Source: an uncultured delta proteobacterium (GTDB lineage Bacteria; Desulfobacterota; Binatia; UBA9968). Taken from it: DNA of 64,000 nucleotides. The notes beneath the pieces were generated by a model that did no database searches, was not told where the DNA came from, and was given only the letters and a program-made list of their open reading frames with translations. The stretch covers positions 96,001 through 160,000 of the forward strand of contig CAVSLC010000025.1 in assembly GCA_963728565.1 (NCBI GenBank). Reading direction: 5' to 3'. Shown piece after piece: positions 4,210-39,853 of this stretch. A program made the translations under genes and the position numbers. The stretch's first letter is position 1, and each line of letters starts with the position of its first letter.

Positions 4210-5200
4210 ATGATAAAAGAAGAAAGAGGAGAAGAAAGTTGAAGAGTATAGTAATAGAGATGAATAATAGATGAAAAATGAGATGAGGAAACTGTTTAGA
4301 TGAGAGATATGAGGTAAAAGGAGATATTATTATAAGAATAATGGAAAAAGTGATGAGAGAGGGGAAAGGATGAGGTATAGAGAAGGTGAGATTTAAAGGA
4401 GGAGAGAAGAATATATATAGAAGGTTAAGAGAAATAATAGAGAGTGAAGCAGAGGTTGGATATAAGTTAAGCTTTGTGAGTAAAGGAGAGAGTTTAAAGA
4501 GATAGTATAAGTTGATGCTAAAACAAAGGCTATAGTTTGAAGGTGTCACTTTTAGCTAGGATAAGAGAGAGAGAACAGAAATATGAAAAGCTAAGAGGTA
4601 AAGGATAGTTTTGGTAGGTGATGAGGGAGGAGAGTATATGAATGTTTAAGGAGATGATTTTAAGATTGAACATGGTGATAAAAGCTAAGAATAGGAATGA
4701 GATAGGAGAGATGGTAGTGATAGAGGAAAGGTTTGGCAGAGATGGAGTGAGTTTAGGATATTTGATGAATACTATAGAGATAGATTTGAGAAAGATAGAT
4801 GTATAGAAGAAAGAGAGGAGTGAGATAGAATAAGAAATATGGGGATTAAAGAAGAGAGCTTATATTATTGTTGGAATGGAGATAGGTTATTTAAGTGAGG
4901 TTTTTTTTTTTATTTGTGGTAAGATGGAGATAGAAGAATATAAATTAGACTATAAAGGGAACTTAACTATTTGCTGAGAGATATAAGGAAACTAAGGAAA
5001 AAAAGACAGTACAGAAGTTATAGATAACATAAAGAGGTAAGTATGAAAGAGGTATGTGAGAGCTTTAAAATGAGAGTGGATACTTATATAGCAGATAAGA
5101 GGGAAAAGATAAAAAAGGGAAAGTTTAGCAAGATGGAATATTTTATCTGTTGGTATAGATTAAAATATATAGGTAAGAACTATTGGCTAAGTAGTTTTAT
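4210..5200 (+). CDS. Radical SAM protein with C-terminal Cys cluster (SPASM/twitch-like); corrupted, ends approximate
   Basis: AAT AGA TGA AAA ATG AGA TGA GGA AAC TGT TTA GAT GAG (4266-4304) reverts to NR-C-NLR-C-GH-C-FDE (CxxxCxxC). Same frame: F[T]GGE[P] at 4392-4409, SFVS[N]G and GVTFS.D. C-terminal EEY[N]LDYKGNLTIC[C] at 4933-4977 and CWY[C] at 5148-5159. Confidence 0.7.
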
Positions 5201-5254
5201 AAAAGATATATGGAGAGAATAGAAAGAGATATAGAGGAAGGAGACTAACAAATA

Positions 5255-5542
5255 ATGATAGAAGAGAAGGTTAGATCTAATACACAGGTAGTAGATAAAG
5301 TACTAGATGATGGAGAGGTTGTTCTATTTGAAGTAGAGAGAAAAAATTATTACAGATTAAATAAGAAAGGAGAGAGAATATGGGGAGGACTAAAAGAAGG
5401 ATAGAGATTAAATGAGATAAGAAGATGGCTAAAGGAGGAGTTTGATGTGAATGAAGAAGAAGCTGACAGGAGAGTTAGAGATCTAATTAAGGAGCTTAGA
5501 GAACAGAATATAGAGCTGTATAAGAATAAGGAGAGTTATTAG
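5255..5542 (+). CDS. PqqD-family protein / RiPP recognition element (one corrupted in-frame stop at 5402)
   Basis: AGGAGA RBS-like sequence at ~5239. Reads VVD.VLDDGEVVLF....NYY.LN..G.RIW.GLKEG..L.EI...L.EEFDV.EEEADR.V.DLI.EL.EQ, the typical ~90-aa PqqD pattern. Confidence 0.75.
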
Positions 5543-5592
5543 AAGAGAGTAGGAGAGAAGTTTGTTCTAAAGAGAGAGAGAAGTAAACTGAC

Positions 5593-6300
5593 ATGAACAG
5601 TTTTAGGACTGAAATATATTTGCTTCTAGACTGAGATAGAAAGTGATTGGAAGATAAAGAAGTGAGAGGGATTAGAAAGACTGATCTAGAAAGATATAGA
5701 TTGGAAGTAACTTTATAGCATAGCTAGAGGGCACAGGGTGATGAAGCTATTCTATAGAACTTTGAATTAGAAGTGCTAAGACGAAGTGAGTACAGAGATT
5801 TTACAGGAACTAAGAGAACACTTTTACGAGAACGATGGAAGCAACTTATTTTTAACAAAGGAACTGATCAAGATAGTGGAGTTCTTAGAGGCGCACGGAA
5901 TTTTGTTATTTGTATAAAGGATTTGTTTTGATTCTTAGATCTATGAGAATTTAGTGTTTAGGGAGTTTGTTGATTTGTATATTTTAGTAAGTGAGTGAGA
6001 CTATTTGAGAGCACAATGTCTGCTAGTTGATTTGTTTTTTGGCTCAAGATTGAATATGAATGAGAGAATGAATTTGTAGATGAAAGTGTAAAGATAGTTG
6101 TGTATTTTCACTAGTGTATAGCGCTGCAATATTTTCTTTCGCTGCTCACTTTTGATTATCTGTGCGAGCGCTTTCAGCTTGTCGCTTTGCTTGGTGAAAC
6201 AGCAACTACTTTATGCTAGGAAGATACACTGCTCATGCTCAGCATCTAAGTCACGAAAGATGAGCATCTTCAGCTCTCTAAGATCTGTGACATTGCTAAG
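5593..6300 (+). CDS. Nucleotidyltransferase family protein (NTP_transf_5-like); corrupted, end unknown
   Basis: MNSFR.EI.LLLD[C].., DIDW..L..IARGHRVM.LFY, NLFLTKELIKIVEFLEAHGI (5843-5901), Y.NL..REF.DL[D]ILV (5942-5989). Confidence 0.6.
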
Positions 6301-6803
6301 CCTCTGTGTGTATCACTGCTTGAACTGAGCACAGTTGCTAAAAAAAACTTATAATTTAAGAGAGCAGCGAATGCTGTTATATGCTCTATGTCTCGCGAGA
6401 GATCTCTTAAATACGACACTCTCGCAAACATTCATGTAGATGTTATTTCACTGATCTCTCAAAGATCTTGTAAACTATGCTCGATAACAATTGTTCCTTT
6501 AGATGACTCTGTTTACGAGCTACGTCCTGCTAATTGTTTGCGTTAATTTCTGCAAAAACGCCTACGCGACAAATTAAGAGCTTACCACGATTTTTTACAT
6601 GACGTAATAATACCTTGCGAACCAAATCGAAAATCCTTTCCTATGCAAAAATAATTATCCTTTCTCTACTATTTCATTCAATAAATGCAATTATTAAATA
6701 AAAGCAAATTACGTCAAATAAAAAGAATCATGACACATCCAAAAAATCAAAAATAAAAAAATAATAAAAAAAAAATTATAAAAAAAAAATTAAAAAAAAA
6801 AAA

Positions 6804-6857
<54 letters not shown>

Positions 6858-6867
6858 AAAAAAGAAA

Positions 6868-7988
6868 AGCCGATAAAATTCGGCGCAGTTGTCCCAAAGA
6901 ATTTTTCGCTTGTCGTTATCGGTGATCGGCAGTCCGAGGAAAGTTTCGACTGCATCTGGGAACTTCGAATCGCCATGCGGGTAATCTGTCGAGAATACCA
7001 GCCGATCGGTGCCGATGTAATCGATTACGTACTTGACGCCATCCTCGTCGGGCTCCACCGATACGAAGCATTGTCTCTTGAAGTACTCGCTCGGTTTCAT
7101 GGTCAAGTCTTGCGCCCAGATATCGCCTTCCCGCTCCCAGCCTTCGTCCAGGCGCCATAGCAGCCAGGGCAGCCAGGTGCAATTCGCTTCCAGAAATGCG
7201 GCCCGCAGCTTGGGATGGCGCGCCAAGACTCCGCCGGAGCATAGGCTGACTAACCCGAGCATCTGCTCCATCGGTTGAGCGACGGCGCGCCGCAGCATGA
7301 AATTCGGTTCGAAAAAATCACCGGTTTGTCGTGCCGCGGACGAGGACGACTCGTGAAAGCCAACCGGCAGTTCATACTCTTCTAACGTCGCCCACAGCGG
7401 TTCGAAGTATTCGTCGTACCAATTTCGTCCTTCCATGATGCTCGACCGCATGAAAACGGCGCGAAAACCGAGCTCGGTGGCGCACCGCTTCGCCTCGGAG
7501 ACCGCTTCATCGATGCCGAAAGGCGATATCATGCCGGCGCCGAGAAGCCGGGATGGGTTGGTTTTACAGAAATCGTAAAGCCAATCGTTATAGGCGCGCG
7601 CGAGAGCGGCCGCGAACCTCGCTTCCATTCTCGGTTCGCTCAAGACTTGCAGGCCTCGGGTGGGGTAGAGCACCGCGACATCGATGCCTTCGATGTCCAT
7701 CGCCTCGAGTTGGACGCCGGCACTCCAGCCGCGCTCGGCGTGCGATCTATAGATCGTCTGGTTTTTGCTGAAGTTGTGGCCTCGATGGTGCGATGAGTTG
7801 CGATTGTGGCTTGCCGGTAATCCCCAGTAGCGGCCGTCCGGATGCGCCATGCGCAAATCGCGAACGTTGTCGCTGGTCAGGCCGCGCGGCGCATCGGCCT
7901 TGAACTCCGCATCGATATAGCGCTCCCATAGATCCACGGGCTCCATCAAATGCATATCGCTGTCGAGAATCTTGAAACCATTTTTCAT
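6868..7988 (-). CDS. Amidohydrolase_2 family protein (stop codon lost in the artefact)
   Basis: ILDSDMH, AYNDW, GFHE, STDYPHGD, KILWDN motifs. Confidence 0.9.
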
Positions 7989-8131
7989 GAACCACCTCTT
8001 TCAGCAGAATCGCTACGTCATCGGTACCGCAATCCCAGCTTCAGTGTCAACGCGAGTCACGCATATTCCGCTTGCCGCATCCACGCTATCTGGTAATTTG
8101 AGGCATCACGTCTATAGGTCAGGAGAAGATA

Positions 8132-8611
8132 ATGCCTTTAAGGAACTCGTTTTGCTGGCGGTATGCCGGTATCTTCCTCTTCCTGTTCATGAGCGGCGCG
8201 GCTAGCTATGCGCAACCGAAATCCGCGGCAACATCGATCACGGTCTATCAGGATCCCGGCTGAGGATGCTGTTCAGCGTGGGTCGGGCACCTGCAATCGA
8301 ATGGGTTTAGAATCGAAAAGAAGAACGTCACCGGCAAGCAACTCGTAGACGTCAAAATAAAATACAACGTACCCGAGAAACTTTATTCGTGTCATACCGC
8401 GCTGGTTCAAAGCTATGTGATTGAAGGCCATGTGCCGGCGGATCTTATTCATCGCCTGCTCAAAGAAAGGCCGGCCATGGCGGGTCTGGCGGTGCCGGGC
8501 ATGCCGGTTGGCTCACCGGGGATGGAAGGAGCCAATCCGCAGTCCTACGAGGTAATCATTTTTGACAAGCAGGCCGTACTTCAGTATACGCGAGAAGATA
8601 AACGTGCTTAG
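8132..8611 (+). CDS. DUF411 / CopG-like exported metal-binding protein, probable selenoprotein (in-frame TGA 8261-8263 = U44)
   Basis: AGGAG at 8121, ATG at 8132, signal peptide, then TVYQDPG-TGA-GCCSAWVGHL...SCHTA...YVIEGHVPA...GLAVPGMPVGSPGME, all in one frame. A probable indel near 8569 would give a true stop at ~8601. Confidence 0.85.
8274..8293 (+). promoter_or_regulatory. Candidate bacterial SECIS hairpin
   Basis: CAG-C-GTG / GGTCGGG loop / CAC-CTG: 6-bp stem with a bulged C, starting 10 nt after the UGA. Confidence 0.45.
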
Positions 8612-8679
8612 GTGTTCAAAATTCAAGTCTTCAATAGTTCAGCTGGTGCCATAGCGGCGCTCGGAAGGAAGGCGCCTGA

Positions 8680-9699
8680 ATGAAGCTTCCAACTCTGTCC
8701 CACGATGTCGGTCCGCTTTGCTTAACAGTGCTTGTTTTCTTTATGCTGGCACAGCCCTTGGCGGCTCGCGCGCAAGAAAAGAAGAACGTACGCATGGTTT
8801 TCGTCAGCCTGGCGTGGAACAGCGAGATTCCGTTTCGGACAGCGCTCGCGCGCGGGTTCTTCAAGCAGCAAGGCCTCCAAGTCGAACCTATTCTCATCCG
8901 TGGCGGTCCGGCGGCGATCGCCGCTCTGGTTTCCGGTGAAGTTGATTTTGCGGCCATCGGCGGCGCTCAGGCCGTTTTTCGCAGTAAAGCGCGCGGTTTG
9001 GACCTGGCGATAATCGGATGCACTTCGAGCACGACCAATTATATCCTTCTCGGTAACAAGCAGACGCGTAGCGTGGAAGATCTCAGAGGCAAGATCATTG
9101 GTGTAACCGGCGCCGGAACCTATTCCGAGTTCGCTATGAAAGCTTTCCTCAAAAAGAACAACCTCAATCCCGACAAAGACGTGGTGCTGCGCGCGGTTGG
9201 CGGCACGGTTTTGCGGGCGGCCGCAATCGAAAAGGGGATCATCGCCGCGGCGCCGTTTTCCACAGAAGACGGCGTTCGGCTTATCAAGGCGGGCTATTCT
9301 GTGATCAGCAACATGAGCGAGTCATTAGGTATTCCGCAGAACATCCTGGTAACCCGCAATGAAATGCTCGAGAAGTTTCCCGACACCAGCAGGCGTATGC
9401 TCAAGGCCTATATACAAGGAATCAATCTCGCCAAGTTCAACAAGCAGGAAGCGATCAAGGCGGGATACGAGGCAGGCTTGCAGGGCGAGTCGGACATCGT
9501 CAGCGCCGCCTGGGATCTCTATGCGCCCGGCCTGACTTCGGACCTGTCCATTGCCAGAGCCGGCCTCCAGCAAATGCTCGATGAGGACATTCGCGCCGGC
9601 TTGGTGGACAAGAATTTCACTTTGGACCGCGTGGTCAACGATCGAATTCTCAAGCTAGCGCAGCAGGAGCTCCGGGCTGAAGGGAAACTGAAGCAGTAA
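8680..9699 (+). CDS. ABC substrate-binding protein, SsuA/THI5/NMT1-like
   Basis: Signal peptide; GFFKQQGLQVE, AALVSGEVDF, EDLRGKIIGV. Confidence 0.9.
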   Translation: MKLPTLSHDVGPLCLTVLVFFMLAQPLAARAQEKKNVRMVFVSLAWNSEIPFRTALARGFFKQQGLQVEPILIRGGPAAIAALVSGEVDFAAIGGAQAVFRSKARGLDLAIIGCTSSTTNYILLGNKQTRSVEDLRGKIIGVTGAGTYSEFAMKAFLKKNNLNPDKDVVLRAVGGTVLRAAAIEKGIIAAAPFSTEDGVRLIKAGYSVISNMSESLGIPQNILVTRNEMLEKFPDTSRRMLKAYIQGINLAKFNKQEAIKAGYEAGLQGESDIVSAAWDLYAPGLTSDLSIARAGLQQMLDEDIRAGLVDKNFTLDRVVNDRILKLAQQELRAEGKLKQ

Positions 9700-9702
9700 A
9701 AG

Positions 9703-9800
9703 CTGTTCCAGCTGTTCCAGAATTTCCAGCGGTTCCAATGGTCTGGAAGTTCAAAACGTTCAAGCCGTGCAAACACTATGGTTCAAGGGTTCAACGCGTT
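9703..9800 (+). repeat. Degenerate ~9-nt tandem array (GTTCCA/GTTCAA units)
   Basis: ctgttccag ctgttccag aatttccag cggttccaa ... gttcaaaac gttcaagc ... ggttcaag ggttcaac. Confidence 0.6.
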
Positions 9801-9821
9801 AAAGGAGTCGAGTGTGGGAGA

Positions 9822-10229
9822 ATGAGGGGCCGAAGATTGAAATTGAGCAGGCGACGAATTGCGGCGCGAGCGGAGAAACCGGGGCTGTGGTTGTTCAAAT
9901 GGCGTGTGCAAAACGTGACCGAAATGCCGATGAGCCTACTTTCCGTGCGAGTGCCGCATGGAAAATTCAAGGCCGAGGAACGCAGGTTTGGCCCAGCGTT
10001 AAAAGTCGCAGCGCAAGACCATTTCATTCTCGATCTCGCCGTCGCTTGTGAGGAACCGCCGAATACCATAATCGAAAATGCATTCTTGATTCTGCTCGTG
10101 AGCTGGCGGCAAAATCATTGGAGGTTTTTTGTGCGACTGCGGATAATGGTAGATGACGAAGAACAGCCGCAGACGACAATTGAGTCGATTACCGTGCAGC
10201 AAGTTGGGTTCTCCGGTGTTCCGAATTGA
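9822..10229 (+). CDS. Hypothetical protein
   Basis: Open frame with GGAG before ATG 9822; no recognised motif. Confidence 0.55.
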   Translation: MRGRRLKLSRRRIAARAEKPGLWLFKWRVQNVTEMPMSLLSVRVPHGKFKAEERRFGPALKVAAQDHFILDLAVACEEPPNTIIENAFLILLVSWRQNHWRFFVRLRIMVDDEEQPQTTIESITVQQVGFSGVPN

Positions 10230-10240
10230 CGGGTGATGCA

Positions 10241-10463
10241 ATGACAAGAAAAGAAAAGGATCTTTACATTCTCACGCGCATGCGCGGCTGATACAGCAAT
10301 TGAGGCCTCGGCTTCGAAGAGACCACGGGCATGGTCTCCAATTCGCTTAAGTTAGTTCAAGAGGAAATCATTGAGGCCTTGGCTCGCCTGCGGCGCGAGC
10401 AAGCCGACAACCCCGAGTATCAGAAATCTGCGGCGGGAATTGCCTCAGGATTGGCCGGTGTGA
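10241..10463 (+). CDS. Small hypothetical protein (frameshifted)
   Basis: Fragments MTRKEKDLYIL.., GFEETTGMVSNSLKLVQEEIIEALARLRREQADNPEYQK and LRRELPQDWPV in shifting frames. Confidence 0.4.
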
Positions 10464-10586
10464 CGTGCGGAGCGGGTGTTGGGTTTTAGGTTTTCGGTTT
10501 CGGTTATGTCGCCTGGACACAGGTGTAACCGGCGTGACGAGAGACGGATACGGTCGATCCAGAAAGACCATCGAGAACGCGTCTAA

Positions 10587-11342
10587 TTACTTTTGCAGCC
10601 TGACCTGTGGTTGCCGCAATTTTAGATCGGCAACCCCGCCCCAGAATTCTCTTTTGCCGGTCATCGCCTGAACGTGGCCGTCCCATTCCAGAGTGAAAGC
10701 GGTTATGCCTAGCTTCACCGCCGCGCGTACTTTGTCTTGAGTTTCACTATCGTTGGCTAACAAGCGAATCGCATCGATCTGGCGGCTGCCGTGTCCCTCG
10801 TCTTGCGCGGCGTGCAGCCGATAGGTTTCCGCGGCGCGGGGCGAGAAGCCGTAGTGCTCGGTCAGTTCGCGGTAGACCTTCTCGGAGACCTTGCCCGCGC
10901 CTCCGAGTTGGCTTTCGACGAAGGCGAGCATGGCCACTCCTTCCAACGCCGAACGTCTTTGGCAGCAGCCGATGATCATTTCGATCGCCGCCATGGTTCC
11001 CGGCGCGGGCTCGGCGTTGTCCGCTTCCTGCCGCGAGATGCCGCCCTCTTCGAGAAACTGCAACATGATATCCATGTGCGTGCGTTTACCGCCGAGCTCT
11101 TCCATGAAATTTTCCAGAACGGTGTCCATCACCGCATACTCTTTGGCGGATACGGCGTTGACCGCCATATAGCCAAAGAAGATCGGATTGGTGCGGACGC
11201 GCAGATAGTGCTGCACCTCGCCGAGAATGATTTGCTCCCTGGTCCAGCGATGCTTGATGATTCCGTCGAACCACGGATGCTGCTCGGTCGGAACCTCCGC
11301 GGCATAGGTCCAGAGCTCGGCGATGAATTCGTCCTGGTTCAT
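10587..11342 (-). CDS. Heme-oxygenase-like diiron enzyme (TenA/PqqC/CADD superfamily)
   Basis: QHPWF near the N-terminus; candidate metal ligands ENFMEE...TH, FVESQ and LH...DEGH. Confidence 0.8.
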   Translation of the reverse strand: MNQDEFIAELWTYAAEVPTEQHPWFDGIIKHRWTREQIILGEVQHYLRVRTNPIFFGYMAVNAVSAKEYAVMDTVLENFMEELGGKRTHMDIMLQFLEEGGISRQEADNAEPAPGTMAAIEMIIGCCQRRSALEGVAMLAFVESQLGGAGKVSEKVYRELTEHYGFSPRAAETYRLHAAQDEGHGSRQIDAIRLLANDSETQDKVRAAVKLGITAFTLEWDGHVQAMTGKREFWGGVADLKLRQPQVRLQK

Positions 11343-11427
11343 GAACAGTTCTTTATCGAGCCCGGTCTAGCACGTTGCGGACTAAAAACGTGATCATGTA
11401 TCATCGGAATGCCTTATCCGATCTGAA

Positions 11428-12531
11428 TTATGCGCTGGCAGCTTTCTTTGATAACTGAGCATTCTCCACCCGTTCCTTCAACCGCGGGTAGAATCTCAAC
11501 GGATTGTCCCAAAAGATCTTGCGCTTGAGCTCGTCACTGACGTCTTTGCGGTTAATCAAATTCGGAATATCCTGGCTGAAGTCGCGCTGATCGCGTTCGT
11601 GCGGATAATCCGAGGCCCAGATGAGCGCATTGTCGTTGGCGACTTGCGCGGCCAGCGGTAGCGCCGACTCTTCGACTTCCACGGCGAAGAAGATATTTCC
11701 TTTCTTGACGTACTCGCTGGGTTTCATTTTACAGCGCGGCGAATAGTGACCTTTACGCTCCTGTTCCTCGTCCATTCGGTCCATCATGTAAGGCACCCAA
11801 CCGACGCCGCATTCGATGCAGCCGAAGCGAAAGTTTGGGAACAGCTCGAAAACTCCTTCGAACATCAAGGCGGTGAACTGGCGAATCTGGGCGAATGGAT
11901 GTTCCAGGGTGTGTCCGATGGTGAAGTTGTTCACCATATCGAGGCCTAGCGACGGCATGCTTAGCCCGCCATGGGTCGAAACCGGTACGTCCAGCCTCTG
12001 CGCTTCTTCCCAAAGCGGGTAGAATTCAGGACCGCTGTAAAGGCGTCCAGCCGGAGCGACAGCAGGCAGCACGGCGCCGACCATACCGAGATCGTTAACG
12101 CAACGGCGCAGTTCTTTAACCGCTTCGGCGATATCTTGGATCGGCAAAAGCGCGACCCCGACCAGGCGCGGGCTCACTGCCATGAATTTGTGGTAGAGCC
12201 AGTCGTTGTAGGCTCTCGCCATGCAAATGGCCCAGTCCCTATCCTGGATCGCTCCATGAGTGAGCCCCTGAGTCGGGTAGAGCACCGTCAGCTCAATTTT
12301 ATTTTTGTCGAGAAAGTCGAGCCAATGATTCGCCTTGGGGCCGTCGCCGCCGCCGGCCCAGCCACCTTTCTGACGCAACGAACGCAGGTAACCGTCCATG
12401 GTGAGGCCTGGCCAAAAGGAATAGCTCTGATGCCATTCCAGATCTTTGTAAGGCGGGCCGATGAATTCGCGCAGTTCGCTGTCAAGCTCCATGACGTGCC
12501 CGTCCGCATCGATAATTCGATACTCAGTCAT
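11428..12531 (-). CDS. Amidohydrolase_2 family protein
   Basis: IIDADGH, AYNDW, ASDYPH. Confidence 0.9.
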   Translation of the reverse strand: MTEYRIIDADGHVMELDSELREFIGPPYKDLEWHQSYSFWPGLTMDGYLRSLRQKGGWAGGGDGPKANHWLDFLDKNKIELTVLYPTQGLTHGAIQDRDWAICMARAYNDWLYHKFMAVSPRLVGVALLPIQDIAEAVKELRRCVNDLGMVGAVLPAVAPAGRLYSGPEFYPLWEEAQRLDVPVSTHGGLSMPSLGLDMVNNFTIGHTLEHPFAQIRQFTALMFEGVFELFPNFRFGCIECGVGWVPYMMDRMDEEQERKGHYSPRCKMKPSEYVKKGNIFFAVEVEESALPLAAQVANDNALIWASDYPHERDQRDFSQDIPNLINRKDVSDELKRKIFWDNPLRFYPRLKERVENAQLSKKAASA

Positions 12532-12618
12532 CTTAGTCTCCTCTCTCAACCGTGCTATTCACAAATTTAATCCGAAAAGCGAGCGACCGGAATCTTCTTT
12601 TATCACTATGACGAGCCA

Positions 12619-13578
12619 TCATGTGCCGTGGGTGTTCTCAGCAAATAGCTCTTCAACCGTCAGTTGACGGCCGAGCATGCCCTGCTGGCCGGCGAACTTA
12701 ATCAGATTCTGCACGTCGTGATGGTTTTCTCTGAAGCCCTGATAGAAAGGGTCTTTACCGAAAAACTTCCGTTCTTCTTCCAAATACGAGCGTGCCCAGG
12801 CAAAACTGAGCCGGTGCGGTTGCTCCATAAACTCGTTGTACGCTTGACGTGACGCCACAAATGCTTCGTAGAGGCTGGTGGCCACCCAGGGATCGTTGTC
12901 GAGGATTTCCTTCTTGACTACAATCGGGTGCATGATCGGGAAAACTTTGGTCCGCTGGTAGTACTCTTTCTCCTCTTTTTCGAATTCCGGAAACAGCCGC
13001 TCGATGCTTCCTTCGTCGCGAATCCAGCGCTGCGGTAAATCCGGTTCAACCTCCGCATCGACCTTGCCCTCGACCAATAAATCCTCGAGCTTCCGTTGAC
13101 CCTCGACGAATTCCACTTTGATGTTCGGCGGAAGTTTAAAACCAACGTGTTCTTTGTTGACAATTACCCAGGTGACATCGGTGACCGACAGATCGTAGCT
13201 GTTCATCAGCATGCCTTTGGTGACCAGGGCGAGGGTGTTTTCGTAGCTGCGCAAGCCGATGCGGCCGCCTTTTAGATCCGCGGGCTTCTTGATCCCGGAA
13301 CCGGAGCGAATGAAACAGAACTTGTGCCCCCACATGCGGCGCGGAAAGAACGGGATGGCTTGCAGCCAATCCACGTCCCGGCCGCGGGCGACCAGATAGG
13401 AAGACATTGAGAACTCACAGGCATCGTACTCGCCGTATCGGAACATTCGCTCATGACGGATGCCGCTTTCAACCGTGATCAAATTTAGATCGATGCCCGC
13501 GACTTCAACCAGTCCGTCGCGCAAAGGCTGGAGATAGTCGTATTTGTCGCATGCCATCGTCAGCTTTAGTTTCGCCAT
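12619..13578 (-). CDS. 4,5-dihydroxyphthalate decarboxylase-like protein (periplasmic-binding fold, no signal peptide)
   Basis: LTMACDKYD, CEFSMSSY, FPIMHPIV motifs typical of the PhtD/OphC-like family. Confidence 0.8.
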   Translation of the reverse strand: MAKLKLTMACDKYDYLQPLRDGLVEVAGIDLNLITVESGIRHERMFRYGEYDACEFSMSSYLVARGRDVDWLQAIPFFPRRMWGHKFCFIRSGSGIKKPADLKGGRIGLRSYENTLALVTKGMLMNSYDLSVTDVTWVIVNKEHVGFKLPPNIKVEFVEGQRKLEDLLVEGKVDAEVEPDLPQRWIRDEGSIERLFPEFEKEEKEYYQRTKVFPIMHPIVVKKEILDNDPWVATSLYEAFVASRQAYNEFMEQPHRLSFAWARSYLEEERKFFGKDPFYQGFRENHHDVQNLIKFAGQQGMLGRQLTVEELFAENTHGT

Positions 13579-16733: not shown

Positions 16734-17324
16734 ATGGCGAGAATCAAAGGCGTGAGCGAAAGCGAAGCGAGTGATGAGGTGCGACAAATTTTTGAAGCGC
16801 AGAAGCAGCGCCAGGGCGTGGTTTCGAATACCGCGAAAGTCTATGCTTTAAGACCGACAATTCAGAGAGGAGTTCAGGCGCTGGCTCAAGGGATTCAGGA
16901 GTCAGGGCTCATTTCACCCGAGTTAAAGCACCTTCTCTGTGTTAAGACCGCCAATATCAACGGCTGCCCATTTTGAATTGACAGTAACGCATCCAGTGCG
17001 ATGCAAAATGGAGCTACTGCGGAAAAAGTCGAAGCAGTGCTGGGAGATTACAAAGAGAATCCGTTGTTTTCTTTACGGGAGCGGTTGGCGCTGGAGTTAG
17101 CCGAGCGGATGACCTACACGGAACGACGGGTTACGGATGATTTCTTCAATCGGCTCAAGGAACACTTCACCGACGAGGAATTGGTGGAATTAGCGGCGGT
17201 CATTGCTTTGGAAAATTTTCGTAGCAAGTTCAATCCGGTGTTCGGTGTTGAGGCGAACAATTTCTGTCCTCTGCCGCAGGTCAAAGAAGCGGCCGCTGTC
17301 GCGACTCGCCGATTCCACGAATGA
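16734..17324 (+). CDS. AhpD/carboxymuconolactone decarboxylase-like protein, probable selenoprotein (TGA 16974-16976 = U81, CxxU)
   Basis: The two track ORFs are in frame across NGCPF-TGA-IDSNASSA. Downstream half FSLRERLALELAERMT...HFTDEELVEL...ENFRSKFN is the AhpD-like C-terminal region. Confidence 0.88.
16989..17004 (+). promoter_or_regulatory. Candidate bacterial SECIS hairpin
   Basis: GCATC-CAGTGC-GATGC perfect 5-bp stem starting 12 nt after the UGA. Confidence 0.5.
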
Positions 17325-17515: not shown

Positions 17516-20500
17516 TCAGTGTCTCGTTGGACTTTTTTGCGGATCTTGCAGCGAATCAAGCAACTTTTGCAGCGTTTCAAAATCAGCGGGTTTGGTGAGA
17601 TGGAAATCGAACCCCGCGGCTTGCGAGCGCTGGCGATCCTCGGCTTGGCCCCAGCCCGTTAATGCAATCAGCGTGAGATCTCCACAGTCCGGCAGCCGTC
17701 GAACTCTGCGCGCCAACTCGTATCCGTCCATGTCGGGCATGCCTATATCCACTAGCATCACGCCGGGCTGATACGTTGGGAGTAGCTCCAGCGCTGCGAA
17801 GCCATTGTAGACGGCCCGAGCTTCGGCTCCCGCCAAATTGAGCAGCTTGCCGAGACTATTGGCGGCATCACGGTTGTCATCGACCACTAACACCCGCTTG
17901 GAAGATAGCTGCCCGAAGTGACGCATACTGTCACGAACAATTTCGCTTTGGGCGTTCTCACCGAGCGGTAGACGAACAATAAATTCGCTGCCCTTACCCG
18001 GGCCTTCGCTTCGAGCCTCGACCTTGCCACCATGCATTTCCACCAGGCTGCGAACCAGCGTGAGCCCGATACCCAGCCCGCCCTGAGTTCGGCTGGTCGA
18101 ATGCCCGACTTGCGTGAACATTTCAAAGATAAGGGACAACATATCCGGCAAAATGCCGATACCGCTATCTCGCACCGAGATCACTACATGATCGCTCTCG
18201 CGCTGCGCGGCTAGCCAGATGCGCCCTCCAGGATTGGTATACTTGGCGGCATTATTGAGGAGGTTCGAAACGATCTGCTCCAGCCGTACAGGATCGGCTT
18301 CGAAGGTGAGCGGCTCCGGCGGCAATGAGATCGCCAGATGATGGCAGGCGTCCTCGATCAGGGGCATACTGACTTCGACCGCGCTCTGGATCACGCTCGT
18401 CAGTGAAACCCGCTCTTTGCGCAGTTCGATTTGACCGCGAGTGATCCGGGATATTTCCAGCAGATCATCGACCAGGCGCACCATCTGATTGACCTGCCGT
18501 TCCATCATCTCGTAAATCTTCTCGGTGCCTGGCTTGCAATCGCCGCTAAGCTGGAGGATTTGCAGGCTGTTCCGAATAGGGGCGAGCGGATTACGCAGCT
18601 CGTGCGCCAGAGTGTCGCGAGAAATTCGTCCTTGCGCCGGTCGGCCTCGCGCATCGCTTCCTGAGACTTGATGAGCTCTGTGATATCGGCGGAACTTCCG
18701 ACATAGCCGGTTACTTCGCCCGCGGGCCCAAGGCGCGGATTGCCGCGCGATTCAATCCAGCGCCATTGGTTATCATGCCGTTTAACCCGCGCCCGCGCAT
18801 GCAGCGGCTGTCGATCGCGCAGGGCGGCGCTGAATGCTTCGTAAGTATTCTCGGTCGTCGGAATGAACAATCTCCGACCATTCCAGCTGTGCGGCTCTTT
18901 CCCGGGTAATCCCAAAGAAGTCCAGATACGAGCGATTGACGAATTCAATGCGACCGGCGGCATCGGTTACCCAAATCATCATCGGGGAGCTGTCAGCCAT
19001 CGTGCGAAAACGTTCCTCGCTTTCGCGCAGCTTTTCTTCCGCCAATTTGCTCTCGGTGATGTCGATAATAAACTCGACGCCCTCATCTGCTTCGATCCGT
19101 GTGGCAGCGAACAAAGCCCACCAGCGCGATCCGTCCTTGCGGATGTATTCCTTTTCGTAGGGAATCGTCCGGCCCCTCATCTCGAACTCCTCCACCGCCT
19201 CGCAGCGATTGCGGCATCCACTCCGGCGGAGTCAGCCTGTCCCAACGCACCAGCCCGATCTCCAGATCGCCCCGGCTATAGCCGCTCATACGCAGGAAGG
19301 CGTCGTTGGCATCGGTGATGCGGCCATCGGTCTTGAAGAATATCACTCCCACCGTTTCAATCTGTATCGCGCGACTCAGTCGCTCCTGAGACGCTTGTAG
19401 CGCTTGCTCGGCCCGCTTGCGATCCTCGATGTTCTGAACGATGCCGACGAAGCGCGCCGGGTTGCCGTGCGCATCGCGCACCACTGTGCCATTGCAATGG
19501 ACCCAGAGATACCCGCCGCCGGCGGCTCTCAGCGCGGCACTCAGCCGAGAAGGTTCCGGTTTGTTCAAATGCCGGCAGCGAAGCTTGGATGACACCTTGG
19601 CGATCATCCGGGTGAATCACGGCAGTCGCGCCGGCGACCGAAAAGTATTTTTCCGGCAGTGTCTCATAGCCGAATAGTTGCGCCATGTTCTCCGAGTACT
19701 TGATCGTTCCGGTCAATAGATCGACGTCCCACGCGAACACACCGGCAGCTTGCGTCGCCAGTCGCATGCGCTCCTCCGCTTCGTAGAGCTTTTGTTCAGT
19801 TTCCTTGCGCGCCGAGATGTTGCGGAAAATGGCGCTGGCACGCGGCGCCTGGCCGGCGGCGCGCCGCAGCAGGCTGACGTTCAAGTGGTTCCAGAAAGTC
19901 GAGCCGTCTTTGCGCAGCAACTTGGTTTCGATGGAGATCGCCGGGATCTCGCCTCGCGATAGTTGCTGCAGTAAAACCGCGGTGGTCTCGCGATTCTCCG
20001 GATGCGTCAGTTCGCTGACAGTGCGCAGAGTCAGTTCTTCCGCGGAGTAGCCTGTCATCTCGCACATTTTGCGGTTGACCCGAACGAATCGGCCGGTGAG
20101 CGGCTCGACCTGACATTGGCCGACACTCGAGAGCTCAAACATGGCACGGAATTCTTCTTCGCTTTCAGGCAGCTTTTCTTCCGTATGCTTCGAAGCGGCG
20201 GCTTCGACCGTGCCGATCATTCGTAGGCTGCGGATGCGAAACGGGACAGGTCGGTGAGCAGCCGCGCGTCCTCTGCATCGAACTTCCGTTCCGGACTATG
20301 AGTCAGAACCCACAAGGTGCCGACCGGTTCGCCGGCGCTGTGAAATGGCACTGAGAGATTTTCAAAGATCGGCAAGTTCATTTCGCGGAGAGCGACGAAA
20401 TGCCGTTCAGGGCGCTCGAACAGAAGGACAGAGGCGCGCTCGAGCACGGTTGCGCACGGGCACGCCTCGCGCGGCATCGATGTGTTGATGTTTGGCGCGA

Positions 20501-20785
20501 TAACGTCCGGCTACGGCGCGCCAACGGAACACGCTGGCGTCCTCGGGTGATTCCAGGACGCTGATCCCGGCGGAATCGGCATGGCACAGCTCGAGCGCCA
20601 TGTCCGCCAACTTTTGCAAGAAAGCCCGCGGCGCTTCGTTCATGGCCTGCGTCAATGCGATCAGAGCTCGGTTCTCGGCCGCATATTCGGGGGTACGCGA
20701 GACACGCCGGAACAGCTCAGAGGTGTTAAGAACCTGATCGAGAGACAACCGCTCTCGTTTAACTCTGCACTTCGATGATCCCCAT
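17516..20785 (-). CDS. Hybrid sensor histidine kinase (GAF + several PAS + HisKA/HATPase + receiver), broken by several indels; start approximate
   Basis: GAF ([16 protein letters not shown]), PAS repeats (THPE, IHPDD, RKDGS), H-box near [24 protein letters not shown], receiver VVDDN/DIGMP/KP. Confidence 0.85.
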
Positions 20786-21150: not shown

Positions 21151-22164
21151 CTAGCGCTTTTTATACAGCCCGTCGATAAAACCGTTGTCATCGAACTCTT
21201 TGATCAGACTCATATCGACGAAATCTTCCGGGCGCGCGGCGCGCGCTTTGGCGTCTTTCTCGCCGAGCTCGGCCAGCGCTTCTTTGACGGAATCGAGTGA
21301 TGGATACGGTTTCTCCGGCACCAGGCGAGAGAAGAATTGATAGCTGTCCTCCAAGGCGTCGTTATCGTTGGTCTTGACATATTTTCCGATCACTTTTTTG
21401 CTGAATTCCTTGTCGGTCTTATAGAGGTGGATGCCTTCGAGCAGGGCTCGGGTGAATTTACGCGCGGTGTCGCGCTTTTCACGAATGTAGGAGATCCGCG
21501 ATGCGACAGGGGTGGTCGGATAGGCGCCGCCGAAATCCTCAGGTTGGGCGATGATGTTCATATTGAATTTACGAGCCATATTGGTCACCGGCGGTTGCGC
21601 GACCATGCCGTGCACCTGTTTGGTTTGAATTGCCGCGAGCCGAGTGGGTTGCCCGCCGGGGATCTGCAAAATCGCCACGTCGACGTCGGGCTTCAAACCC
21701 CATTTGAGCAGTATCTTTCTGGTGGCATAGTCCGAATTGGAACCGAAACGGCTGACCGTGAGCTTTTTGCCTCTCAGATCTTCCGGCCGTTTGATCTCCG
21801 GCGAAACCACCATGCTGTAGGCGAGAACGTTAAGCAGCCCGCTGATCAGGGTTACGTCAGCTCCTCGAAGCTTGGCGACAACGGGGGCGTTGCCGCCGAC
21901 CTGGGCGATGGGCAGATCGCCGGACATCATCGCCTGGGTCGCTCTCGAGCCGCCGTCGAGGTAGATCATGACCACGTCAAGGCCGTTTTTCTCGAACAGT
22001 CCGGCCTCCTTGGTGATCCAAAATGGCGCTTGCGAGCCGGCGACCGCGCTCCAGCCAATCGTAAGGTTTTCTAAAGGTGCGGACGCCGCTATAGAAATTT
22101 TCAATTGCGACAGCAACGAAAGCAGCATCGTCAAACTGGCCGCAATGATTCTTGTGCGTTTCAT
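21151..22164 (-). CDS. ABC substrate-binding protein, SsuA/THI5/NMT1-like
   Basis: Signal peptide; GLFEKNGLDV, EDLRGKKLTVSRFGS. Confidence 0.9.
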   Translation of the reverse strand: MKRTRIIAASLTMLLSLLSQLKISIAASAPLENLTIGWSAVAGSQAPFWITKEAGLFEKNGLDVVMIYLDGGSRATQAMMSGDLPIAQVGGNAPVVAKLRGADVTLISGLLNVLAYSMVVSPEIKRPEDLRGKKLTVSRFGSNSDYATRKILLKWGLKPDVDVAILQIPGGQPTRLAAIQTKQVHGMVAQPPVTNMARKFNMNIIAQPEDFGGAYPTTPVASRISYIREKRDTARKFTRALLEGIHLYKTDKEFSKKVIGKYVKTNDNDALEDSYQFFSRLVPEKPYPSLDSVKEALAELGEKDAKARAARPEDFVDMSLIKEFDDNGFIDGLYKKR

Positions 22165-22337
22165 GTTGTCTCCTGCTTTTTCAGTGCGAGAGTGCGTGGA
22201 GTCACGATGATCGTATCTGGGCTGTCCGATGGAGTTGAATAACCCGAGTCGCAGATCTGCGCGCTCAACATACCACAATGCTACTGCCGGCGATCTTCTT
22301 GAACGTTGAACGGTTAAACTTTGCACGTTGATGAGCG

Positions 22338-23132
22338 CTAGGCCGCACTGACCCATTTGTTCACATCCACCTCCCAGCCTTTGGTCTGCGACAAATCCAG
22401 CGCGTTGCCTTCCGGATCGCGGAATCGGACTTCGGCGTAGGGTCGGGTCGATGGGCGAGGCGCGATGTTCAACACTTTGCGCAATTCGGCTAAGGTCGCC
22501 TCCATCGTATTGGTGAGAAACCCGATATGATTGATGCCGAATTTCGCCTCATGGCCTTCGATGGGGTTGTAGAACGGGTGTATCGCCAGATTGGTCTGGC
22601 CGTCGCCGCAAAACCGATTTCCCCGGCCTTGCTGCCGCCGCTGGTAGCTGGACGGCACCTCGCGCATGCCGAACACTTGAGTGTAGAAGCGCAGCATCAT
22701 CTCCGGATCCAAAGCGTTGTAGGCGATATGACGGACCCGGGGGAACTGCTTTTCTTTTTCAGCCGGCACGCCGAATTGCCGGGTCGACAAGCTAACCGGA
22801 AAACATTCGGGGTCGTGAATTCTGATCTCGCCGTGATGAATATCGTCGGGCTCCTGGAGGATCATGCCGCGCGGATTCAGAGCTAGAAACCGTCCTTTAC
22901 TTTCTTCCAGATCATCGACTGCCAAACCGATATGATGCAGGCCGCACTCCATTTTCATTTCGTTTAATTGAGCGCGCCTTTTGAAAAACGTCAGATTGTA
23001 GAATCCATCGGTGATCGAGATGTCGCCTTCGCCTGAGCGGCCCAGTTCTTCGGTGCCGAGAAAGCGACGATAGAAGTCGCTTGTCTTTTCCGGATCATCG
23101 CTGAGAAAAGCGATGTAGCGAAGAACCGCCAT
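22338..23132 (-). CDS. VOC/glyoxalase family protein (two domains)
   Basis: AGGAGG RBS; GLHHIGL..DPE and GINHIGF..RDPEGN repeats. Confidence 0.85.
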   Translation of the reverse strand: MAVLRYIAFLSDDPEKTSDFYRRFLGTEELGRSGEGDISITDGFYNLTFFKRRAQLNEMKMECGLHHIGLAVDDLEESKGRFLALNPRGMILQEPDDIHHGEIRIHDPECFPVSLSTRQFGVPAEKEKQFPRVRHIAYNALDPEMMLRFYTQVFGMREVPSSYQRRQQGRGNRFCGDGQTNLAIHPFYNPIEGHEAKFGINHIGFLTNTMEATLAELRKVLNIAPRPSTRPYAEVRFRDPEGNALDLSQTKGWEVDVNKWVSAA

Positions 23133-23244
23133 AAATGAATCCTCCTGGAAGATGAAATAGCGAGTCAGGGAGAAATGCCGGGAATCAGAAAATAGATTCG
23201 AGCGTTTTTGCCATAACTCCAGCTCTCCATCACTGCAACTTTCT

Positions 23245-24342
23245 CTAATCCCGTATATTCTGCGTGAACCATTCCAGCGGCAGCGGATGTCCAAGACCTT
23301 TAGCGCGCGCCAGATTGTAAGCCGTGCCGCCGACGGCGGCGAACTGCAGGCCTTGCGTGCCCTGATTGTTTAGAAACGTGATCTGTTGATCATTGGCGCG
23401 GCCGATCCAACGGCCGGCCATGACATCGGGCACGGTGCCGATCCCCGGGTTGTCGATTTCGTAATGCGGCGCCGAGGGAATCTTCTTTTTCTCCTCGGCG
23501 TTGCCGGCGATGTAACCGAACATGCCGTCGCTGCCGGTGGTTACTTCCGGAGCGTTGCGGTCGGCGAACAGAGTGGATGTGCCGAGGCGGGCGATCACGT
23601 CGGCCCGCTTTAGAACGTCAGGACCGGCTTCGTTATTGCGCACATTATTGATATGCATTCCGGGCTCGAGCCAGTCGGCCTTGATCACCGGAACCAGCGA
23701 GTCGGTGGTCAGCGCAACCACGTCGGCGCCTTTAAGCGCTTTTTCCGGCGAGTCAACGGCGATCACTTCCATGTCCAGCTTCTCGGTCATCTCAGCGGCA
23801 TAAGCTTCGCGGTTGGCTTTGGTCGGGCTGAATACGCGCATGACTTCGATGGGTTTGACGTGTTTGATCGCTTCGGCATAGGTGCGCGCCATGCCGCCGG
23901 AGCCGATCATCGCCAAGACTTTCGAGTTCTGCCGCGCCAGGTATTTGGTTCCCAGCCCGGCGCAGGCGCCGACCCGCATATGCTGCAGGTAACCGTCGTT
24001 GATGATCGCCAGGGGCTCGCCGTTGCGTGTGCTGGTGAGAAATATCAGGCCGCAATAGGTTCCGCGCTCGATGCAGTATTTGTCCTCGACGATGAAGCCG
24101 TCTTTGTTTTCCCACGCCAGCATGTCCGATTTCATGCGGATGGCGAAGACGCCAAGCTTGCGCGATGCGCCTTCCATGGTTCCCCAACGATAGTAGTGAG
24201 GTTCTTGCGGAACATAGAAATCGATCCGCGGCCGGTAACCGGCGCGCAATTGATTAAGCTCGTGGTATGCCTCCTCCATCGCTTGAATGCAGGTGGGCAT
24301 GTCGAGAACCTGCTCAACGTGAGCATTGGTAAGAAAAATCAT
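23245..24342 (-). CDS. Ornithine cyclodeaminase / mu-crystallin family protein
   Basis: QHMRVGAC, MIGSGGMA, VFSPT, WLEPGMHI, GLQFAAV. Confidence 0.88.
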   Translation of the reverse strand: MIFLTNAHVEQVLDMPTCIQAMEEAYHELNQLRAGYRPRIDFYVPQEPHYYRWGTMEGASRKLGVFAIRMKSDMLAWENKDGFIVEDKYCIERGTYCGLIFLTSTRNGEPLAIINDGYLQHMRVGACAGLGTKYLARQNSKVLAMIGSGGMARTYAEAIKHVKPIEVMRVFSPTKANREAYAAEMTEKLDMEVIAVDSPEKALKGADVVALTTDSLVPVIKADWLEPGMHINNVRNNEAGPDVLKRADVIARLGTSTLFADRNAPEVTTGSDGMFGYIAGNAEEKKKIPSAPHYEIDNPGIGTVPDVMAGRWIGRANDQQITFLNNQGTQGLQFAAVGGTAYNLARAKGLGHPLPLEWFTQNIRD

Positions 24343-24355
24343 CGTTCGCTCCTGG

Positions 24356-24478
24356 CAGGCTGCTGAAAAAGCCTCATATGCTTCGTTGCGCTTGCCCACT
24401 TGCTTCAACGTACTGAAGCGTACGCCTCAGCTCATCGAACTTCGCGCGCCTTGCCTCTGAGGCTTTTTGACCAGCCTG
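24356..24478 (+). mobile_element. MITE-like repeat, copy 1
   Basis: CAGGCTGCTGAAAAAG...CTTTTTGACCAGCCTG terminal inverted repeats; internal CGTAC-TGAAGC-GTACG. Confidence 0.75.
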
Positions 24479-24592
24479 GATACAGACTATTAAGCAAACT
24501 GCTAGTGATCGAAACCACATGATCGGTGGTAGTCTCGTGTGGACTTTGGTATAGCCTGTCAAAGAGTCACTGTAAAGCCGATCGGGGGGGGC

Positions 24593-25588: not shown

Positions 25589-25709
25589 CCCAGTAGCTCG
25601 GATAATCTGCCGAAGATGTTGATGTCCAAGCCGCGCGATCGTTCTTGCGATTTGAACGGCTTGAACTACTTGGAACGATTTGAAACAAATTATTCAGGGG
25701 AGTGAAATC

Positions 25710-26800
25710 ATGGCTGGTGTGATCGACGCAGATACCCATATCGCCGAGTCGGAAGCGATGTGGGAATTTATCGATCGAGAGATGTATCCGCGCAGGCCGA
25801 TCTGGCAAAGATTCCCGATGACACCTGGTACAAAGATCGAAATGCGTTTTGGCTGATTGATGGCGAGATCTTTCCCAAGCCGGCGGGCAAGGGCAGCTTT
25901 AGTTTGATCACGCCTTCGGCGGCCAAGAGAGAAGCCGGAAGGGGAGACATTCACCTGGCCGTCCGAGAATTGACCGATCCCATCGCGCGCCTGAAGGATA
26001 TGGACAGAATCGCTGTGGAAGTACAGGTGATCTATCCGACACTTTTTCTGGTGTATCTCACTGACGATCCGCAGTTGGAGATAGCTCTGTGCCGCGCCTA
26101 CAATCGCTTTGTCGCCGATGCTTGCGCTAAAGCCCCGGAACGGCTCAAGTGGGTGTCGATTCTGCCGTTACGCGCGGTCGATTCGGCGTTGAAAGAAATG
26201 ACTTGGGCGAAGGAGCATGGCGCGGTCGGTATATTCTTTCGTGGCATGGAAGGCGATCTCACGCTCGATAACCCTTATTTCTTTTCTATCTACGCCCAGG
26301 CGGAGCAGCTCGATCTGCCGATCTGTATTCACACCGGTTCAGGCAGCCGCTACTTGATGCAGCTCTTCGATATCGAACGCAATCACACCTTCGCGCATAA
26401 TCGCGTGCTGCCGGTTTTTGCCTTCCGTGATCTGGTGCACAATCGGATTCCGGAAAAGTTTCCGAGCTTGCGTTTCGGTTTCATCGAAGCTGCCGCCAGT
26501 TGGGTGCCCTACATCTGGCATGTGTTGCGGCGGCAGCAAAGCAATTGGAGATTCAGCGATCCGCAGGAGCTCTTTCGTGAGTATCGCTTCTGGGTAGCCT
26601 GCGAGGCCGATGAAGAGTTGCCGCACCTGGTGCGGTTTCTCGGCGAGGATAAGTTGATTATTGGGTCCGATTACGGCCATAACGATCCTTCCAAGGAGCC
26701 GCAGTTTGTCGCCAATCTGCGCGGTCGCGAGGATGTGCCGAGCGCTTTAGTCGAGAAGATCCTGTGCCAGAATCCCCGAACCTTCTATGGCTTAGGATGA
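25710..26800 (+). CDS. Amidohydrolase_2 family protein (indel near 25802)
   Basis: MAGVIDADTH, then IYPT, AYNRF, CIHTG and GSDYGH in the shifted frame. Confidence 0.88.
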
Positions 26801-39843: not shown

Positions 39844-39853
39844 GACCCGACCT

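Follow-up and report, generated by a model that had tools for sequence, protein, structure and literature searches.

CopG, known selenoproteins and the DUF411 gene of the window

According to the passages of PMC7558416 that were consulted, CopG-like proteins are periplasmic and thioredoxin-like, carry a tetranuclear copper cluster on a CxCC motif and two adjacent methionines, and aid copper resistance under anaerobic conditions. In the same passages, oxidation of Cu(I) to Cu(II) and delivery of copper to cuproproteins such as CueO are put forward as roles of CopG, and copG is described as linked to copA and cusCBA. Here we analysed a 64,000-nucleotide stretch of DNA from an uncultured delta proteobacterium (contig CAVSLC010000025.1, positions 96,001 to 160,000; the whole stretch is called the window in the following), in which a gene at 8132-8611 on the plus strand encodes a protein of the same Pfam family (DUF411) as CopG, with the same fold and predicted export architecture. 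The C-x-C-C position, the two methionines and the C-H pair of CopG are kept in this protein. It differs from CopG in that the codon for the first cysteine of C-x-C-C is TGA, putatively selenocysteine (Sec), in that the gene has no cop, cus or multicopper-oxidase neighbourhood, and in that the hosts of such TGA forms are uncultured soil and sediment phyla, not Proteobacteria. The CopG structures 6WIS and 6WJE, which served for comparison, are presumably those of the Pseudomonas aeruginosa protein. Judged from the sequences compared below, codon 44 of the window gene very probably encodes Sec, and we consider it likely that the product is an exported Sec-containing CopG with a role for its copper cluster.

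Among the catalogued selenoproteins, the thioredoxin-fold proteins with a UxxC motif come closest (thioredoxin, glutaredoxin, DsbA-like, DsbG-like and thiol:disulfide interchange; PMC13188914). As in these, the putative Sec replaces the N-terminal cysteine at the start of helix 1, cysteine homologues are widespread, and gene callers truncate the genes; unlike in these, the motif is U-x-C-C with an extra cysteine and lies in the metal-cluster site of CopG instead of forming a simple dithiol/disulfide. In formate dehydrogenase (Mo/W-Se) and [NiFeSe] hydrogenase (PMC13188914), Sec coordinates a redox-active metal directly, as it would in the window protein; here, however, the metal would be copper, bound as a multinuclear cluster, and the protein would be small and either non-enzymatic or an oxidoreductase. 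A natural copper-Sec site is not described in the literature examined. A link between selenium and the handling of copper or heavy metals is also found in the SO_0444 family Cu/Zn efflux transporter (UxC) and the CopZ-family (2Fe-2S)-binding protein (GxUC, CU) of PMC13188914, but their folds and families are unrelated to CopG, the former being a membrane transporter and the latter having a cytoplasmic-type chaperone fold. Sec in place of the first cysteine of a thioredoxin-fold CxxC, with cysteine homologues, would be the familiar part of the present case, and the family together with the likely copper-cluster setting would be the new one.

DsbA-like, DsbG-like and thiol:disulfide-interchange proteins are exported proteins. 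Selenoproteins of all three kinds are listed in Table 1 of PMC13188914 (May 2026; 119 selenoprotein families and subfamilies), so that an earlier note on this DNA, made from the sequence alone, overstated its case when it called the candidate unusual in location. Its other claim, that the family is unusual, agrees with the absence of DUF411, PF04214 and CopG from that table. DUF411, PF04214 and CopG are likewise missing from the main text of the BSepDB paper, although a mention in supplements, on the BSepDB website or in subscription journals is possible, and among the papers listed in our literature search nothing linked DUF411 (COG3019/PF04214) with selenoproteins or, by title or abstract, CopG with selenocysteine. 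If the Sec reading is right, DUF411/CopG would join the bacterial selenoprotein families, of which the 2026 review (PMC13188914) counts 119 including subfamilies, and in uncultured but widespread phyla of soil, selenium use would be linked with the handling of copper in the periplasm.

The window gene and its relatives

A Shine-Dalgarno-like AGGAG at 8121-8125 (+), found by direct reading, stands 6 nt ahead of the ATG at 8132. This putative ribosome-binding site, a signal-peptide-like N-terminus and the DUF411/CopG domain share one frame within 8132-8611 (+), whose sole interruption is the TGA at 8261-8263, and the sequence agrees in this with the earlier note; the signal peptide was called by eye and with a count of hydrophobic runs. 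Residues 1-27 (MPLRNSFCWRYAGIFLFLFMSGAASYA; 8132-8212, +), which resemble a signal peptide of the Sec secretion type, include two arginines, a hydrophobic core of 13-14 residues and a cleavage-like site between S-Y-A and Q. By the same run measure, a hydrophobic run is present in the N-terminus of 18 of the 20 TGA forms compared below (loci carry L-numbers and proteins P-numbers); L018, also a TGA form, has a lipobox-like LLQGC earlier in its N-terminus. Read as U, the TGA yields a 159-residue protein (P0001) with VYQDPG-U-GCC, in which the putative Sec is residue 44 and takes the first position of a U-G-C-C motif (8261-8272, +). Scanning the surroundings of the gene for promoters and terminators gave no useful information. 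We also considered a gene on the minus strand and rejected it, since this strand offers only open reading frames (ORFs) of 59 and 108 amino acids and 8276-8638 (-), when read through, matches no family.

Family membership is clear. The Pfam model DUF411 (PF04214) matches residues 84-131 (8381-8524, +), a segment with C87-H88, H100, M124 and M131, at E=1.7e-26 and 92.1 bits against a cutoff of 27; NCBIfam (June 2026) contains no model matching P0001 at E<=0.01. In a phmmer search of the PDB, residues 35-144 aligned with CopG (6WIS/6WJE, with the entry names 'DUF411 domain-containing protein' and 'Copper resistance protein copG') at E=2.7e-26. Codon 44 falls on the first cysteine of CGCC in 6WIS, and the TGA therefore stands where the earlier note had placed it, at the first cysteine of the family motif. 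An AlphaFold2 model based on a 25-row alignment (predicted local distance difference test 79.5, predicted template modelling (TM) score 0.70) shows a thioredoxin-like order of strands and helices, with low confidence for residues 1-29 and a folded domain thereafter; codon 44 lies in the loop joining the strand 34-40 and the helix 47-56. Foldseek returned five matches at E<=0.001, every one a CopG chain (E 2e-11 to 2e-10, target-normalised TM 0.74-0.79). The next folds were thioredoxins, protein disulfide isomerase (PDI) and glutaredoxins, all of them weak (E>=0.015).

The TGA is conserved in relatives. A genome scan with one genome per species gave at least 600 pattern matches, of which 596 were confirmed, and from these we took the best 80 loci. 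The comparison rests on 82 family genes, namely those of 79 loci (L036 has three copies) and the window gene. At the motif codon, 20 of these genes have TGA (19 loci and the window), 56 have TGC and 6 have TGT. Locus L001, with about 96% DNA identity to the window, carries the same TGA but is outside the 82 genes, as indels broke its pattern match; counting it, TGA is found at 20 of the best 80 related loci. The motif reads PTUGCC, PTUDCC or PTUSCC in the 19 loci, and conservation continues in frame on both sides of the TGA (...[IV]TVY[KQ][ST]PT-U-[GDS]CC..W[VI].H[LM]..). By record title, at least seven phylum-level groups are represented: 'uncultured delta proteobacterium'/Candidatus Binatia, Gemmatimonadota, Acidobacteriota (including Vicinamibacteria), Chloroflexota/Anaerolineae, Methylomirabilota, Rokuibacteriota and Tectomicrobia metagenome-assembled genomes. 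The earlier note had proposed a search for orthologs with TGA at this codon and conservation on either side of it, and had named the lack of any relative with this TGA as one outcome that would speak against its reading; they were found at the 19 loci and in L001. Its interpretation as an exported CopG/DUF411 protein with Sec for the first cysteine of C-x-C-C gains support from this persistence of the TGA. Reassignment of the genetic code was considered and rejected, because the same genes often terminate with TGA (e.g., L009 and L012).

The remaining residues of the putative metal site do not vary at all. C46, C47, C87, H88, H100, M124 and M131 are invariant in 82/82 family genes, M124 and M131 standing in G-M-P-V-G-S-P-G-M. 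Based on the alignment with 6WIS and on the passage of PMC7558416 cited above, these two residues would be the two ligand methionines of the CopG structure. The window protein thus possesses positions 3 and 4 of C-x-C-C (C46 and C47), while position 1, the TGA, contributes a chalcogen ligand only if it is read as Sec. Since the other ligand columns are invariant, the TGA forms appear to keep the whole site and to change one ligand.

Public protein sets hold this gene in truncated or code-4 versions, and the earlier note was right that ORF callers miss it. Among the best 120 of 7996 protein matches, 55 have cysteine at the motif, 3 have tryptophan, and 62 are without the motif region; 49 of these 62 begin exactly 35 residues ahead of S-C-H-T, mostly with V/M-GHLQA, and one NCBI record, a truncated form of 103 residues, is named 'DUF411 domain-containing protein'. 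The three tryptophan entries (P0002, P0003 and P0005) all come from contigs of about 1 kb. They are code-4 gene calls, a view based on a second TGA-containing gene of the window (described below), whose full-length relatives read both the Sec column and the terminal TGA as tryptophan. The protein encoded by TGA forms is therefore represented by fragments of approximately 106 residues or by sequences with a spurious tryptophan, so family statistics and annotations are systematically wrong at this gene in these lineages, and code-4 calls on short contigs disguise selenoproteins as apparently full-length tryptophan forms.

The abundance of such fragments (callers annotate C-terminal pieces of 93-111 residues, and the motif region is absent in 62 of the best 120 matches) could also be taken to mean that TGA44 is a true stop and that translation yields only an N-terminal peptide of 43 residues or a C-terminal fragment with a start of its own. 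The fragments, however, would have neither the signal peptide nor the C-x-C-C that belong to an exported metal-binding protein, no start codon follows the TGA in frame before 8417, which is past C87-H88, and β-strand 1 (...ITVYQ.P.), which lies 5′ of the TGA, is conserved in frame in TGA and Cys forms alike. A separate downstream protein is unlikely, and we regard termination at this codon as extremely improbable.

The distribution of Sec and Cys on a tree is that expected of a true selenoprotein family, as far as sequences can tell. We computed a maximum-likelihood tree from 82 rows and 121 columns with the motif column masked; as the alignment is short and the tree poorly resolved, switches can be counted only approximately. 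At least 4 changes of the Sec/Cys label are required, 2 of them forced by branches with a Shimodaira-Hasegawa-like approximate likelihood ratio (SH-aLRT) support >=95. When labels were shuffled, a mean of 18 changes was required, and 0/500 shuffles were as low as the observed value. The Cys form L016 is nested among Sec forms of Rokuibacteriota/Methylomirabilota, and L041 and L039/L080 are placed apart.

The 3′ end of the window copy is disturbed by a frameshift. The last 12 residues of the frame as it stands (AVLQYTREDKRA, followed by the tag stop at 8609-8611, +) are out of frame and unlike the family, and this tag is unlikely to be the true stop. GRTSVYARR, the conserved C-terminus of the family (relatives end with ...GRTSVYARR), stands in the next frame and is followed by the taa at 8599-8601, which places a frameshift of 1 nt at about 8571 (8570-8601, +). 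One A is missing from the window near this position, where GCAGG stands against GCAAGG in the closest relative, L001. L001 itself (9970-10510) has three other single-base deletions in the same gene, at sites that differ from that in the window, and near-identical database proteins (P0008, 96% identical over the match, and P0006) have a normal C-terminus. We favour an assembly error over decay because the single-base indels are scattered and not shared between the window and L001; the window frameshift, which has a homopolymer-type look, is probably such an error. Nevertheless, this frameshift and the three indels of L001 count against an intact gene to the extent that decay may be under way in the lineage.

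Taken further, the same observations would make the window copy a pseudogene or a product of sequencing errors, with the TGA and the 3′ frameshift both being lesions: the frameshift at about 8571 and the three other 1-nt indels of L001 lie within the same 480 bp, and other genes of the window look split as well, e.g., a sensor kinase at 17519-20510 (-). Yet the TGA preserves the frame, cannot arise from an indel, and is common to L001 and 19 more distant loci. The four indels, on the other hand, occupy different sites in the window and L001, and the C-termini of P0008 and P0006 are intact. We give this explanation only a very small chance.

Additional features were observed in individual relatives. 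The Acidobacteriota TGA form L014 (region at 10040) has an additional in-frame TGA a few codons 5′ of β-strand 1 (UPYRVNGF...). Three Cys-form DUF411 paralogues lie within 7 kb in L036 (10037, 15504 and 16700; Gemmatimonadaceae). The Cys form L053 (at 234; Comamonadaceae) is longer at the C-terminus by about 85 residues; this extension includes Met-rich stretches and may resemble CusF-type copper-binding domains. Many Cys forms (L011, L015, L025, L043, L055 and others) have twin-arginine-like signals such as SRRxFL, whereas N-termini of Sec type or with a lipobox-like element are found in most TGA forms, with L023 and L032 as possible exceptions. Judging from these N-termini, Cys and TGA forms may differ in export route.

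Probable decoding of the TGA as selenocysteine

Besides the DUF411 gene, the window contains a second gene with a TGA at a cysteine position. Screening the window for in-frame TGA codons with >=35 open codons upstream and >=50 downstream gave 102 sites, and only two of them (8261 and 16974) require read-through for a family match. The second gene, at 16734-17324 (+), encodes a CMD/AhpD-like protein of 196 residues with a C-P-F-U motif (TGA at 16974-16976) and matches PF02627 (CMD) at E=8.6e-11. Its best NCBIfam match is NF053654, 'YciW-related (seleno)protein' (E=1.4e-49), followed by TIGR01926; at 168 bits it stays under the 310-bit equivalog cutoff of NF053654 and is thus related to that exact model without belonging to it. 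Among the selenoprotein families catalogued in PMC13188914 are CxxU proteins of the AhpD-like and CMD-like kinds, and the gene resembles the AhpD-like, CMD-like and YciW-related selenoproteins in its PF02627 and TIGR01926 matches and in having the catalogued C-x-x-U motif. Of its best 120 protein matches, 114 are truncated (mostly at 107 residues), 4 have tryptophan at the U column and 2 are of other kinds. The tryptophan entries (P0123-P0126) come from contigs of about 1-2 kb, and P0123, P0124 and P0126 also read the terminal TGA as tryptophan. A hairpin, GCAUC-CAGUGC-GAUGC, begins 13 nt past the UGA, with GU at +23/+24; it failed our implementation of the bacterial selenocysteine insertion sequence (bSECIS) model introduced below. 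As two independent TGA codons at cysteine positions occur in one window, decoding as Sec is the economical reading, and the two genes together support the view that the organism decodes Sec.

The machinery for Sec decoding was not seen in the DNA at hand. The 64-kb window contains no tRNA and, among its 69 ORFs, no member of the SelA, SelB or SelD families, as is expected at this size; no tRNA-Sec was found in the 20 TGA loci and no Sel family in 145 neighbouring ORFs, which are small genome samples and uninformative. Together with hairpin evidence that is not decisive (see below), these blanks would also suit a UGA44 that is read through without Sec machinery, by near-cognate tryptophan or cysteine insertion, or a host in which Sec is absent and only traces of full-length protein are made. 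This is difficult to reconcile with a TGA placed exactly on the metal-ligand/redox cysteine, which is the signature of Sec/Cys pairs, and with the TGA at the CxxC-equivalent position of the AhpD/CMD-like gene in the same window. Inefficient decoding, moreover, would not persist over at least seven phylum-level groups with Sec-to-Cys switches. We therefore judge read-through of this kind to be highly unlikely and continue with Sec insertion as the preferred reading.

A candidate SECIS element follows the TGA. It consists of a lower stem (8269-8274/8299-8304, +), an upper stem (8278-8283/8289-8294) and the loop CGGGC (8284-8288), and belongs to the minimum free energy (MFE) fold of a 60-nt segment (-9.4 kcal/mol), with the apical loop 20 nt past the UGA. 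The earlier note had located a stem-loop 10 nt downstream, which needs correction: the lower stem begins 5 nt and the upper hairpin 14 nt past the UGA. For bSECIS elements, PMC13188914 gives a loop of 3-9 nt, a stem of 4-16 bp, a G in the first two loop positions, a spacing of 16-37 nt and an MFE <=-7.5. The window hairpin lies within these limits (-8.0 kcal/mol, loop CGGGC, spacing 20 nt).

Several comparisons point to a hairpin that recurs with the TGA. We searched for a perfect hairpin of >=5 bp with the loop start 17-32 nt from the U of UGA and a G in the first two loop positions, and found it in 19/20 TGA forms against 17/62 Cys forms if only the lowest-energy hairpin was considered, or 26/62 if any qualifying hairpin was accepted. 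Outer pairs, which involve wobble or variable positions, are formed more frequently in the TGA forms: pair 18-34 in 70% compared with 29% of the Cys forms, and pair 17-35 in 40% compared with 10%. The loop codon is glycine in 12/20 TGA forms (GGT in 9) but in 1/62 Cys forms. At locus L041, which stands apart on the tree, the hairpin has 8 bp, a GGU loop and a shifted register; still another register is found in L002 and L005. Pair counting over an 8-bp helix gave 80.6% paired, compared with 75.5% in shuffles and 30-54% in slid controls, and double changes in 3 pairs; with rows that are related to each other, these counts are suggestive.

A number of other results weigh against a functional element at this site. 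The upper hairpin on its own (GUGGGU-CGGGC-ACCUGC, 8278-8294; 6 bp) is weak, with -4.2 kcal/mol, and folds of the window region 3′ of the UGA were no better than those of shuffled sequences (z +1.4 and +1.1). An Rfam search of 8100-8700 at a permissive threshold returned two chance-level matches only and no SECIS family, and RNAalifold retained only 4 pairs over the 20 TGA forms. The hairpin core (columns 20-23/29-32 after the U of UGA) is dictated by the codons for W-V-x-H-L and is common to the Cys forms. When codons were replaced synonymously, the mean z was -0.69 for Sec forms (n=20) versus -0.51 for Cys forms (n=62; p=0.19), and +0.95 for the window. The bSECIS model, applied through our own, too permissive implementation, does not discriminate: hairpins within its limits were found in 19/20 TGA forms, 45/62 Cys forms, and 107/200 and 122/186 shuffled sequences (53-66%). 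L039 and L080 have poor hairpins despite their TGA. Finally, Sec/Cys pairs that are phylogenetically independent number just 2, or 4 at most, which gives no statistical power, and with so few independent contrasts the association of hairpin and TGA is inseparable from shared ancestry. On balance, the recurring hairpin is a plausible SECIS element, and the overall evidence for it, drawn from sequence comparison, is moderate.

Putative function and genomic neighbourhood

Based on the above, we propose that 8132-8601 encodes an exported thioredoxin-fold protein of the CopG family (DUF411) with approximately 155 residues. Its codon 44, UGA, would be translated as Sec through SelB and tRNA-Sec, and the insertion would be directed by a short hairpin about 14-34 nt 3′ of the UGA, where the W-V-G-H-L codons pair. 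Sec would then occupy the first position of U-G-C-C at the N-terminus of helix 1, the classical place of the CxxC nucleophile in thioredoxin folds. By homology with Pseudomonas CopG, the motif and M124 and M131 would hold a multinuclear copper cluster, and the protein could interconvert periplasmic Cu(I) and Cu(II) or hand them on. With a selenolate in place of one thiolate, the ligand or nucleophile would be softer, more acidic and more redox-active. By analogy with CopG, it is somewhat probable that the protein handles copper in the same way. More tentatively, Sec44 could be a bridging selenolate in the cluster, with sulfur and selenium ligands switched repeatedly in the family; we think this rather less likely than not to be the actual arrangement. 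If it were, the redox handling of copper in the periplasm would be tuned by selenium in abundant, uncultured lineages of soil and sediment (Binatia, Acidobacteriota, Gemmatimonadota, Methylomirabilota/Rokuibacteriota, Chloroflexota and Tectomicrobia). Naturally paired Cys and Sec forms at the solved Cu4 cluster site could, if the reading holds, show what selenium contributes to a metal site.

The neighbourhood gives mixed indications for a copper function. In the window, the gene is surrounded by Amidohydro_2, an NMT1/SsuA-like binding protein, a small ORF and Haem_oxygenas_2. We scanned 19 TGA loci with 145 ORFs. Of these loci, the Binatia-type ones (L002, L003, L005 and L009) are syntenic with the window (NMT1/SsuA-like, small ORF, Haem_oxygenas_2). 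Copper genes (cop, cus, copA, cusCBA, cueO) were not found beside the window gene or in these four loci, which speaks against a copper role. Metal-related neighbours among the TGA loci occur only at L058 and L028, which adjoin an AcrB-family resistance-nodulation-division (RND) pump, and at L075, which adjoins DsbD_2, SCO1/SenC and a Rieske protein; L039 lies between CcmA/B/C-type genes and DsbD_TM. The RND linkage recalls what the consulted part of PMC7558416 describes for copG. Linkage to copper genes is frequent in the CopG family, not defining.

The main functional rival accepts the Sec protein as real but sees in it a periplasmic thiol/selenol oxidoreductase, or a copper chaperone for the maturation of cuproenzymes or cytochromes, reduced via a DsbD/CcdA-type protein. 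The surroundings of L075 (DsbD_2, SCO1/SenC, Rieske) and L039 (Ccm genes and DsbD_TM) would suit such a role, as would the lack of nearby cop or cus genes in the window, L002, L003, L005 and L009. The nearest folds past CopG are thioredoxins, PDI and glutaredoxins, and a proposed copper transfer to CueO is mentioned in the part of PMC7558416 consulted. However, the thioredoxin-type fold matches are weak (E>=0.015), L058 and L028 adjoin an RND pump, and the CopG ligand set (CxCC, two Met, C-H) is invariant in 82/82 genes, which argues for the same metal site. An oxidoreductase or chaperone role is unlikely on this evidence, though clearly less so than the other alternatives treated above, and copper handling as in CopG is the function we prefer.

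Some further features of the window were recorded outside the two TGA-containing genes. Regions 638-2169 (1.5 kb) and 4550-6746 (2.2 kb) have no ORF of >=90 codons on either strand. The sensor kinase at 17519-20510 (-) is split into at least 4 ORFs (HATPase and receiver, PAS, PAS, and a GAF fragment ending at a TGA), reflecting either frameshifts and stops of the assembly or a decayed gene. Recurrent cassettes of NMT1/SsuA-like, Amidohydro_2 and Haem_oxygenas_2/TenA-like genes occupy 6747-13578, 21154-26797 and 38770-50621, and the trio of Amidohydro_2, NMT1/SsuA-like and Haem_oxygenas_2 genes flanks the DUF411 gene in L002, L003, L005 and L009 as well.

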